Source: a virus (Duplodnaviria; Heunggongvirae; Uroviricota; Caudoviricetes). From it: 9,053 bases of DNA. The position numbers were made by a program. Within the stretch, counting starts at the first letter, position 1. The number at the start of each line of letters is the position of its first letter. Positions 6,001 through 9,000 of this stretch are shown here, piece by piece. Where the stretch lies: IMG/VR virus record IMGVR_UViG_2695420595_000001. One strand, written 5' to 3'.

Positions 6001-9000
6001 GATTTTTCCAGTATTTGTAGATATTGCACTGAACACCGAATACGTAGCAGAGGGTGTCTACACGATAACGTGCTATGAGCTACCATGTTGTCGAAAAATT
6101 GTTTAGTGAGTATGACATCAGGAATGTGGTGGTCTGTTTTAATATTTCTATTTCTATTTCTATTTCTATTTCTATTTCTATTTGTTGTGATTTTTCTTTA
6201 GTTCATGTATTTCGATTTGTTTCTGAATTATCGGGGGTAGTGTCTTCCCTTTTCCCTGAGGCTTATCATGCAGTTATTTTCGCCATCTTGGTATTGTGGA
6301 AATACCGACATCCATAGCTTTGGTGAGCTCTGTTCAGGTGGCCAAATTCAGAAAACCATTACGGAGGAAGAAGGCGATGGCTAAACCAGCGCGAAGACGA
6401 TGTAACCGTAAAAGAGAAGATTTAACTGTTAAAAGGATATTTGAGTTACTAAGTTTCGATAAATCTACCGGGGTATTTAGATGGAAAGTTCCCACTCAGG
6501 GAAGGATAGCATTAAATAGTGTTGCTGGAACTTTTGATTCCAACGGTTATTCAATGATCATGATAGATGGGCGTAGATATAAAACTCACGTCTTAGTTTT
6601 TTACATAACTCATAATCGTTGGCCTGCTGGTCAAATTGACCACGTTAATGGAATTAGGACCGACAATAGGCCAGAAAATTTAAGAGAATGCCTGCCAATA
6701 GAAAATTCAAGAAATATAAGGATCCGAAAGAATAGCAAATCAGGTTGCAGAGGGGTTACTTGGCACAAACGACAGAAAAAATGGAATGTTAGGCTAGGAT
6801 TCCATGGCAAGAGTAAACACTTCGGATGCTTTGATGATCTGGAGTTAGCGGTACTAGTTGCTGAAGAAGCCCGAGATAAGTATTACGGTGATTTTTCCGG
6901 CAACGAAAGGAGCACTTATGCGAATCTATCGAAGGAAATGTAAATGTTGCAATGAATGGTTTATACCAAAATATCAAAATCAATATTGGTGTAATGAGAT
7001 TTGTGGAACCAAGATAGCACTCGAACGACGAAGTAAAGAACGCGAAAAAGCGGAAAAAGCAGCAGAGAAGAAACGACGACGAGAGGAGCAGAAACAGAAA
7101 GATAAACTTAAGATTCGAAAACTCGCCTTAAAGCCCCGCAGTTACTGGATTAAACAAGCCCAACAAGCCGTAAACGCCTTCATCAGAGAAAGAGACCGCG
7201 ACTTACCATGTATCTCGTGCGGAACGCTCACGTCTGCTCAGTGGGATGCCGGACATTACCGGACAACTGCTGCGGCACCTCAACTCCGATTTGATGAACG
7301 CAATATTCACAAGCAATGCGTGGTGTGCAACCAGCACAAAAGCGGAAATCTCGTTCCGTATCGCGTCGAACTGATTAGCCGCATCGGGCAGGAAGCAGTA
7401 GAGGAAATCGAATCAAACCATAACCGCTATCGCTGGACTGTCGAAGAGTGCAGGGCCATCAAGGCGGAGTATCAACAGAAACTTAAAAAACTGCGAAACA
7501 GCAGAAGTGAGGTTGCATGAATATCTACGAAAGAATTGATGGCAGCAAATACCGAAATATTTGGGTAGTTGGCGATCTGCACGGATGCTACACGAACCTG
7601 ATGAAAAAACTGGAGACGATAGGATTCGACCCCAAAAAAGACCTGCTTATCTCGGTGGGCGATTTGGTTGATCGCGGTACAGAGAACGTAGAATGCCTGG
7701 AATTAATCACATTCCCCTGGTTCAGAGCTGTACGTGGAAACCATGAGCAAATGATGATTGATGGCTTATCAGAGCGTGGAAACGTCAATCACTGGCTGCT
7801 TAATGGCGGTGGCTGGTTCTTTAATCTCGATTACGACAAAGAAATTCTGGCTAAAGCTCTTGCCCATAAAGCAGATGAACTTCCGTTAATCATCGAACTG
7901 GTGAGTAAAGGAAAAAAATATGTCATCTGCCACGCCGATTATCCTTGTGATAAATACGAGTTTGGAAAGCCAGTTGATCATCAGCAGGTAATCTGGAACC
8001 GCGAACGAATCAGCAACTCACAAGACGGGATCGTGAAAGAAATCAAAGGCGCGGACACGTTCATCTTTGGTCATACGCAAGCAGTGAAACCACTCAAATT
8101 TGCCAACCAGATGTATATCGATACCGGCGCAGTGTTCTGCGGAAATCTCACATTGATTCAGGTACAGGGAGAAGGCGCATGAGACTCGAAAGCGTAGCTA
8201 AATTTCATTCGCCAAAAAGCCCGATGATGAGCGACTCACCACGGGCTACGGCTTCTGACTCTCTTTCCGGTACTGATGTGATGGCTGCTATGGGGATGGC
8301 GCAATCACAAGCCGGATTCGGAATGGCTGCATTCTGCGGTAAGCATGAACTCAGCCAGAACGACAAACAAAAGGCTATCAACTATCTGATGCAATTTGCA
8401 CACAAGGTATCGGGGAAATACCGTGGTGTGGCAAAGCTCGAAGGAAATACTAAGGCAAAGGTACTGCAAGTGCTCGCAACATTCGCTTATGCGGATTATT
8501 GCCGTAGTGCCGCTACGCCGGGCGCAAGATGCAGAGATTGCCACGGTACAGGCCGTGCGGTTGATATAGCCAAAACAGAGCAGTGGGGGATAGTTGCTGA
8601 GAAAGAGTGCGGAAGATGTAAAGGCGTCGGTTATTCAAGAATGCCAGCAAGCGCCGCATATCGCGCTGTGACGATGCTAATCCCAAACCTTACCCAACCC
8701 ACCTGGTCACGCACTGTTAAGCCGCTGTATGACGCTCTGGTTGTGCAATGCCACAAGGAAGAGTCAATCGCAGACAACATTTTGAATGCGATCACACGTT
8801 AGCGCCATGATTGCCACGGATGGCAACATATTAACGGCATAATATTGACTTTTTGAATAACTTTGGGGAAACTTGACACCAATAATGGGCGTTTTTTACA
8901 TGTCATTGATGAGTCTCAATAACCTGCCGCCGAGTAGTTTTTATGCTCTGAATTGTATTTGTGTAGTAAACATGCTGACTGCAATGTAATAGAGTTTTTT

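Follow-up and report, generated by a model that had tools for sequence, protein, structure and literature searches.

How can a nuclease gene occupy the start of another gene and leave that gene with a complete reading frame of its own? This question is raised by the ninG locus in a 9,053-nt stretch of DNA (referred to here as the window) from a virus of the class Caudoviricetes (IMG/VR record IMGVR_UViG_2695420595_000001), where an HNH/AP2 endonuclease gene begins with the start codons of ninG and is followed by a ninG gene with a different 5' end. Free-standing homing endonucleases are usually described as intergenic; one that lands inside a gene depends on an intron or intein or else splits the gene. 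The ninG element appears to sidestep this insertion cost by taking over the initiation region of its host gene and bringing along a spare 5' end. Its organization suggests that it is probably a free-standing cassette of the homing-endonuclease type that came to lie in the ninG 5' end. In the carrier allele, 64 nt of ninG have been swapped for diverged AT-rich sequence, and we infer that the enzyme actively homes to the uninterrupted form of the ninG 5' sequence, which would be its target.

Architecture of the nuclease-ninG cassette

BLAST comparison with lambda revealed two blocks of homology at this locus, where all features of the cassette described below are on the plus strand. The left block (6364-6405; 42 nt, 95%) comprises the end of ninF and the first 29 nt of ninG. 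The right block (7002-7520), which forms the right homology arm, is a lambda-type ninG body that is 97.3% identical to lambda. Relative to lambda, 596 nt (6406-7001) stand in place of 64 ninG nt. The alignment thus placed the insertion junctions at 6405/6406 (...CGATGTAA followed by CCGTAAAAG) and at 7001/7002 (...GAGATT followed by TGTGGAACC), and both were the same in every cassette copy. An earlier note on this DNA had anticipated that lambda-like ninG sequence resumes near 7000; the right block begins at 7002, and ninG rejoins lambda-type sequence there at a conserved 10-residue block.

The window becomes homologous to lambda, and to loci whose ninF is intact, at 6364, where a 3' remnant of ninF is left (6364-6376). 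The resident ninG Shine-Dalgarno sequence, GGAGG (6363-6367), lies in this remnant and now serves the nuclease gene. It is followed by the captured ninG start (6377-6405), i.e., the ATG, 8 codons, and 2 nt, which encodes MAKPARRRC and is identical to lambda-type ninG over all 29 nt. Lambda NinG (J02459; N terminus, MMAKPARRRCKNDECREWF) starts with the same residues, bearing out the earlier claim that the HNH open reading frame (ORF) begins as lambda ninG does. According to both the ORF list and the sequence, the nuclease ORF (6377-6943; 188 aa) runs from the ATG at 6377 to a TAA at 6941-6943. Its foreign core (6406-6904) is homologous to free-standing HNH/AP2 genes of other phages, and its 12-residue C-terminal tail (6905-6940) has no counterpart in homologues. 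As far as the reading frames tell, this tail is the new ninG ribosome site and start read in another frame. Within it lies a new Shine-Dalgarno sequence, AAAGGAG (6906-6912), for the rebuilt ninG, whose ATG is at 6918. This chimeric ninG (rap) gene (6918-7520; 200 aa) overlaps the nuclease ORF by 26 nt (6918-6943), a value that the earlier note had given exactly to the base. Codons 1 to 28 (6918-7001) form the surrogate 5' end, which is homologous to, and diverged from, the N terminus of lambda NinG.

A group I or II intron and an intein were ruled out, since the nuclease ORF is closed by a stop codon and ninG begins anew with a Shine-Dalgarno sequence and ATG of its own; an Rfam scan of the window returned no family at gathering score. 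An assembly or chance artefact was ruled out by the same arrangement in 536 to 538 complete Escherichia coli genomes. The left cassette junction is spanned by an imperfect 20-nt direct repeat (6395-6435, plus strand; AGACGATGTAACCGTAAAAG and AGAAGATTTAACTGTTAAAAG), for which TRF gave a period of 20, 2 copies, and 80% matches (ungapped, 15/20). Its score was reached anywhere in 6300-7100 by 8 of 300 shuffles of that region. The repeat was dropped as a source of the left junction, being only modestly unusual and yielding no junction mechanism.

The nuclease matched Pfam HNH_3 (PF13392) with 42.7 bits (cutoff, 24.8 bits; 4e-11) and phrog_99 with 1.4e-71. With the single sequence, Pfam AP2 scored 22.2 bits, below its cutoff of 33.3 bits, and across the family it matched 8 of 15 members (best, 1.2e-7). 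A profile built from the family matched the AP2 proteins WRI1 (5e-11), TEM1 (4e-7), and ERF1 (3e-3) and, among structures, I-HmuI (1U3E; 2.7e-8). Hence, of the two domains named in the earlier note, HNH was recovered above the Pfam cutoff, whereas AP2 fell below the cutoff on its own and drew its support from the family profile. Residues D88, H89, N101, and N110 were invariant in the 15-sequence family alignment; they probably correspond to the catalytic Asp-His and metal-binding Asn residues of I-HmuI. The AlphaFold2 (AF2) model had a predicted local distance difference test score (pLDDT) of 87.8 and contained a strand-strand-helix at residues 86 to 113; residues 1 to 17 were without secondary structure, and residues 180 to 188 had a pLDDT below 50. 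Foldseek placed 1U3E, WRI1, and AtERF1 in the top ranks with weak E values (0.012 to 0.08). 1U3E ranked first with a probability of 1.00, but with E = 0.012 and a TM score of ~0.4. The AP2 fold matched 1GCC with a root mean square deviation of 1.3 Å over 51 columns. A terminase-associated HNH protein of cos phages was ruled out by the position in the nin region and by the HNH_3/AP2 family, and a defence system was likewise rejected, as PADLOC gave only a marginal match to a ZorE-type HNH motif (24 residues, 0.0073).

No other in-frame start is present upstream of the conserved N-terminal domain of the nuclease. Distant homologues begin 3 to 8 residues before the conserved motif LT..L..LL.YD..TG.F.W, compared with 15 residues in the window protein, and because the relatives start so close to the motif, MAKPARRRC can be regarded as an add-on from ninG. 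The nuclease thus seems to have no start of its own and would be translated from the ribosome site and ATG of the resident ninG, across nine in-frame ninG codons, in agreement with the earlier proposal that it reuses the ninG start codons. For annotation, this means that the N termini of the nuclease and of the rebuilt host gene are both chimeric, with the first nine residues of the nuclease lying outside the nuclease family. No promoter or terminator belonging to the nuclease was found, with promoter-like sites below shuffle expectation; one weak terminator-like hairpin is located at 6233-6249. A search of 5.8 billion proteins returned copies at least 99% identical, one 104-aa partial protein (89% over 46% of the query), and other relatives of at most 47% identity. 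The nearest homologue with usable context, on a T7-like contig, adjoins endonuclease I and not ninG, and no ninG was present beside the nearest nuclease homologues P0004, P0007, and P0008. Scanning GTDB genomes with the nuclease gave only one 39% relative, from Planctomycetota.

The rebuilt NinG matched Pfam NinG (PF05766) with 281.9 bits (3.5e-84), its residues 4 to 194 covering positions 5 to 192 of the 193-position profile, and also matched phrog_171. The N-terminal Cys motif is kept (C8, C10/C11, C25, and C29). Compared with lambda, the surrogate differs at ~45% of its nucleotides and about half of its residues and is two codons shorter. Its GC content is 28.6%, versus 38.9% for the nuclease core, 48.9% for the ninG body, and 51.6% for the 64-nt lambda segment that was replaced. 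The description of a new, AT-rich 5' end given to ninG thus held, and relatives that carry the same ninG 5' end and no endonuclease were looked for and found in none of the collections searched. The surrogate was linked to the nuclease in 4 of 4 phage records, where the next-best N terminus was 59% identical, in all 52 IMG/VR contigs encoding the peptide, and in 7 of 7 metagenome contigs. Fifty-one of the stored IMG/VR loci hold the nuclease core itself; at L109, the stored stretch ends 34 nt upstream of the match, and the same contig carries the nuclease in L060. Among complete E. coli genomes, 538 matched positions 6800-7001, of which 536 matched in full with nuclease and surrogate contiguous; in the one of the two partial matches that was inspected, an IS3 lies between nuclease and surrogate. 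A tblastn search against phages gave no donor of the surrogate (next best, 59%), a 40-aa search of the 5.8-billion-protein set gave only partial E. coli NinG entries, and degenerate DNA patterns run against IMG/VR and metagenomes gave only nuclease-linked copies.

Lesions in ninG were seen at two cassette-bearing loci. Metagenome contig PPYF01105303.1 (L127) has a 283-nt ninG deletion (window-equivalent 6993-7277) that starts 8 nt before the right junction, and the cassette-bearing locus L011 has a ~770-nt insertion in the ninG body, equivalent to about position 7170. The rebuilt ninG is therefore sometimes inactivated.

Distribution of the cassette and diversity of its flanks

The same arrangement was found in 536 to 538 of 5,426 complete E. 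coli genomes, two Stx1 phages, ~60 IMG/VR contigs, and 7 metagenome contigs. The Stx1 phages AU6Stx1 and SH2026Stx1 carry the gene with the annotation "HNH endonuclease," and 538 complete E. coli genomes, including that of EDL933, already have the gene annotated. Three left contexts occur in E. coli: the full AT-rich island that also precedes the cassette in the window and is described below (251 genomes), the last ~158 nt of this island behind a truncated IS30 (~270 genomes, mostly O157:H7 and including EDL933), and an intact ninF (~19 genomes). An empty ninF-ninG site is present in ~470 more complete E. coli genomes, and most ninG-bearing phages are without the cassette. In IMG/VR, the captured 29-mer continues only with AAA (empty site) or CCG (cassette), and no other element was found at the same left junction.

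Across 55 aligned loci, nucleotide diversity per 40-nt block was 0.000 to 0.015 in the cassette versus 0.01 to 0.09 in ninG. At 90% identity, clustering separated the flanks of the cassette into 20 or more upstream groups and 10 or more downstream groups. With 120 IMG/VR loci as the cassette-free comparison set, the mean distance between ninG bodies was 3.1% for cassette-bearing loci, 2.2% for cassette-free loci, and 2.8% between the two groups, whose ninG bodies were intermixed in clusters. A single-nucleotide polymorphism (SNP) only 9 nt from the right junction was unlinked to the cassette (47:16 versus 98:20; p = 0.18), and several left haplotypes were common to cassette-bearing and cassette-free loci. 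One filled and one empty locus (L053 and L198, respectively) were 100% identical over 1,075 nt on the left and 1,410 nt on the right, i.e., there is a presence/absence polymorphism at a single exact position between flanks that match. Elsewhere, the two differ only by a 663-nt segment that holds another HNH/AP2 gene. The cassette is a single-origin element that now resides in many backgrounds.

Recurrence at other genes and a possible route of insertion

Start capture was also observed at two other genes. HNH3 (175 aa, 41% identical to the window nuclease) is located between ninB and the N6-adenine methylase gene at positions 2259-2822 of L003 (E. coli Br_190_kylling, NZ_CP182387 prophage). 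It begins with MTIKSNTPA, corresponding to the first nine codons of the methylase, and the methylase gene behind it has a substitute start (MIQHKSETPKEVR; 39 nt, 31% GC) and rejoins at DCWQTPLW. Both methylase copies of the window (1139-1666 and 2844-3371) represent empty HNH3 sites (at 1139-1174 and 2844-2879). The filled form is present in 34 of the 5,426 complete E. coli genomes and the empty site in ~1,500, and the sole IMG/VR contig with the methylase surrogate also has HNH3. The second nuclease, HNH4 (195 aa, HNH/AP2; positions 4885-5567 of L183, IMGVR_UViG_2579778959_000005), carries the first 32 codons of ninB at its start. The ninB gene behind it has a 94-nt 5' end of diverged sequence (33% GC) and rejoins at RNRSLDQNRKLW. 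In empty ninB alleles, the homology blocks are 10 nt apart, and the HNH4 cassette replaces these 10 nt; the empty site of the window is at 705-810. HNH4 was found in eight complete E. coli genomes, and no donor of the ninB surrogate was found among phage records. HNH3 and HNH4 are both ~40% identical to the window nuclease, and the GC content of all three surrogates (29 to 33%) is below that of their own nuclease cores (39 to 41%).

Reading the N termini of ~11 HNH-like clusters from the lambdoid loci examined revealed start capture in 3 of them; it has happened at least three times in the lambdoid nin region, including in E. coli O157:H7 prophages. A mirror arrangement was seen for HNH2 (HNH/AP2, 203 aa; 1292-1954 of L053, as compared with L198, and 862-1554 of L003), which has its own start (MRIKKLIDHDELL) and interrupts a hydrophobic 27-aa ORF after 23 nt. 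Here, a diverged copy of the 27-aa ORF lies upstream, and the 3' remnant of the resident ORF and a terminator-like hairpin lie downstream. In L053, HNH2 is frameshifted at an A-run, and it accounts for the sole other difference between L053 and L198.

In each cassette, one of the two junctions falls within a conserved block of the target gene and the other lacks homology, as is expected from break repair with donor homology on one side only. In the founding event, an AT-rich donor phage would have carried the nuclease gene in front of a diverged ninG, and a lambda-type ninG would have been cut between nt 29 and nt 93. The right break end may have been repaired by homeologous pairing in the conserved ninG core, and on this homologous side the 5' end of the donor's gene and the nuclease gene would have been copied in. 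The left break end, which had no homologous partner, may have undergone illegitimate joining to the nuclease 5' end. Captured starts would then be the expected outcome, because only an in-frame join to a translated ORF gives an expressed upstream nuclease. Later spread, with lambda-type arms on both sides, could have proceeded by double-strand-break-stimulated or ordinary homologous recombination among lambdoid phages. The surrogate would play a double role in that it keeps ninG functional and, by removing the target, renders the carrier immune. Breaks are predicted between the left junction and the rejoin point, i.e., at nt 29 to 93 of ninG, nt 27 to 36 of the methylase gene, and nt 96 to 106 of ninB.

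The AT-richness of the surrogates could reflect an AT-rich former host or an escape from the AP2 domain, which is said to favour GC-rich sites (PMC10448857). Proteins combining HNH and AP2 are described as a homing endonuclease family in the same source (PMC10448857, citing Magnani 2004), and intronless homing with co-conversion of the flanks is established (PMC2988022). Tentatively, and with somewhat less than even confidence in the joint claim, we suggest that start fusion combined with a portable, AT-rich, cleavage-immune surrogate 5' end may be a general strategy of the HNH-AP2 homing endonucleases of lambdoid phages. The enzymes would thereby enter the 5' coding region of a gene with neither intron nor intein, obtain translation signals at no cost, and restore the gene that they invade. 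According to this joint claim, the left junction would mark the double-strand break, the surrogate would be a fossil of the previous host, and ninG, methylase, and ninB would all have been invaded by one mechanism of one-sided homology and in-frame illegitimate joining. If the nuclease is active, this would account for the abrupt mosaic boundaries within ninG, ninB, and the methylase gene and would predict that each cut site lies between left junction and rejoin point. It would also provide a tractable lambda-based system to study how homing elements colonise new genomes with homology on only one side of the break.

Several observations weigh against an active homing element. The flank data do not decide whether the cassette's own nuclease drives exchange, and free lambdoid recombination could give diverse flanks and an isogenic pair without any nuclease activity. 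Furthermore, a single context, made up largely of clonal prophages of enterohemorrhagic E. coli, accounts for 519 of the 538 E. coli occurrences, and their abundance therefore reflects host clonality rather than spread. The AP2 domain is below the Pfam cutoff for the single sequence, and the Foldseek E values are weak. Finally, searches for a donor phage carrying a full-length AT-rich ninG or the ninB surrogate were negative, so that the case for importation of the surrogate is one of base composition. A passenger nuclease acquired once by an illegitimate event and now shuffled by general homologous recombination, as in ordinary lambdoid mosaicism, would fit the clonality of most occurrences and the absence of visible co-conversion tracts of variable length; heteroduplex patches ending at heterology can also give diverse flanks and unlinked nearby SNPs. 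However, such mosaicism, with an enzyme that is perhaps inactive or unrelated to the exchange, seems rather unlikely, given that the catalytic residues are invariant, that the ORF is intact in nearly all copies, and that the protein family is described as homing endonucleases. Moreover, start capture together with a surrogate 5' end at three independent genes is unexpected for a passive passenger, and the isogenic pair differs at two HNH/AP2 genes only.

The failure to find a donor for any of the three surrogates would also agree with their origin in place, by duplication of the ninG 5' end and subsequent divergence or recoding to escape cleavage and direct-repeat deletion, and surrogates more AT-rich than their own cores would fit escape from a GC-preferring AP2 domain (PMC10448857). 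We consider this origin improbable, as ~45% of the nucleotides and about half of the residues differ and the length has changed by 2 codons, yet the cassette is near-invariant across hundreds of copies; such divergence needs a long history, and no intermediates are left. It is more improbable still that the phage keeps the nuclease for its own benefit, be it as a domesticated partner of NinG/Rap or as a weapon in competition with co-resident lambdoid phages. The gene is co-transcribed with ninG, overlaps it translationally, and is always linked to a chimeric ninG, and the marginal PADLOC match to a ZorE-type HNH (0.0073) points the same way, but that match spans only 24 residues of a generic HNH motif, and most ninG-bearing phages are without the nuclease. 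In addition, the same architecture at the methylase gene and ninB argues that it is not specific to NinG. A homing-type cassette in the ninG 5' end thus probably remains the best account of the locus.

Surroundings of the cassette and related systems

In the window, ninF is replaced by an AT-rich island (3551-6363; 34.4% GC), which removes the gene down to its last 13 nt and has its right junction at 6363/6364. Since this junction is distinct from that of the cassette at 6405/6406, and the cassette also stands behind an intact ninF, the interval between ninE and ninG took two separate insertions, as had been proposed from the sequence. The island without the cassette was not observed in the sampled E. 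coli ranking, from which a class of fewer than ~20 genomes could escape. It encodes a 590-aa ORF (4054-5826, minus strand) that belongs to phrog_9230 (function unknown) and had no match in Pfam, NCBIfam, or PADLOC. Of the complete E. coli genomes, 251 have the entire island, and in O157:H7, including EDL933, an IS30 remnant cuts it off at 6143. A perfect (TATTTC)x6.8 microsatellite (6143-6183) lies inside a small ORF (6075-6317) and coincides with the breakpoint of the IS30-truncated island; its copy number differs between loci, as seen from alignment gaps in related contigs.

Further upstream, a 7-base N run (1785-1791) separates two 98% identical copies of the ren/ninB-methylase-ninE region (306-694 corresponding to 1792-2180, and 1132-1784 to 2837-3489), which contain two different ninB alleles. 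This layout suggests that two related prophage segments were joined during scaffolding or that a tandem arrangement was collapsed; it does not look like a single natural, contiguous phage. Downstream of the cassette, ninH is absent, and the ninG stop overlaps the start of a Ser/Thr phosphatase gene (7517-7526; homologue of lambda Nin221). Lambda has ninH between ninG and the phosphatase gene, and other cassette-bearing loci keep it.

Literature on ninG, homing in the nin region, and AU6Stx1 yielded no description of the arrangement or of its recurrence. In domain organization, the window nuclease resembles the HNH-AP2 homing endonucleases (the "IPA-HNH" proteins of ICP1 and other phages), which likewise have an N-terminal HNH_3-type His-Me finger and a C-terminal AP2 domain (PMC10448857, citing Magnani 2004). 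They are also free-standing and located in an early or DNA-metabolism region of the phage (PMC10448857). Unlike in these enzymes, the start, ribosome site, and first nine codons of the window gene appear to belong to the target gene. By both profile and fold, the best solved relative of the nuclease domain is I-HmuI (PDB 1U3E), which differs in that it is encoded by a group I intron, nicks one strand, and has other DNA-binding modules, with ~18% sequence identity.

The seg and mob genes of T4 (SegF at gene 56, SegG at gene 32, and MobE at nrdB; PMC2988022) likewise encode nucleases that adjoin their presumed target gene, and there, too, presence/absence polymorphism occurs among related phages and the carrier allele is altered at the presumed target; the flanks travel along (PMC2988022), as they may at ninG. 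However, the immune allele in T4 has scattered substitutions in a single gene copy (PMC2988022), whereas at ninG a partial second 5' copy is present and the nuclease has been joined to the original start. Hidden HNH genes of the ShiLan type in actinophage methylase genes also lie inside a phage gene without an intron or intein and depend on unorthodox translation (PMC11855218), and homing was argued from presence/absence patterns by the authors of that study (PMC11855218). In ShiLan, translation of the host gene continues in frame across the insertion, which forms a loop of the host protein, and the HNH is encoded in another frame (PMC11855218), whereas here ninG stops after nine codons and restarts. 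Transposition-like insertions within genes, again without an intron or intein, are further represented by Aeh1 mobE in nrdA, T4 mobA in gene 39/60, and the seg gene of phage 25 in gene 43 (PMC2988022). None of these three groups, i.e., T4 seg/mob, the gene-splitting insertions, and ShiLan, joins start capture with a supplied replacement 5' end (PMC2988022, PMC11855218). In the gene-splitting insertions, a structural work-around rescues the function of the host gene (PMC2988022), as the surrogate would do at ninG. In contrast to the former, which leave two polypeptides to reassemble (PMC2988022), the ninG product stays a single chain, because the element brings a replacement 5' end with its own ribosome site.

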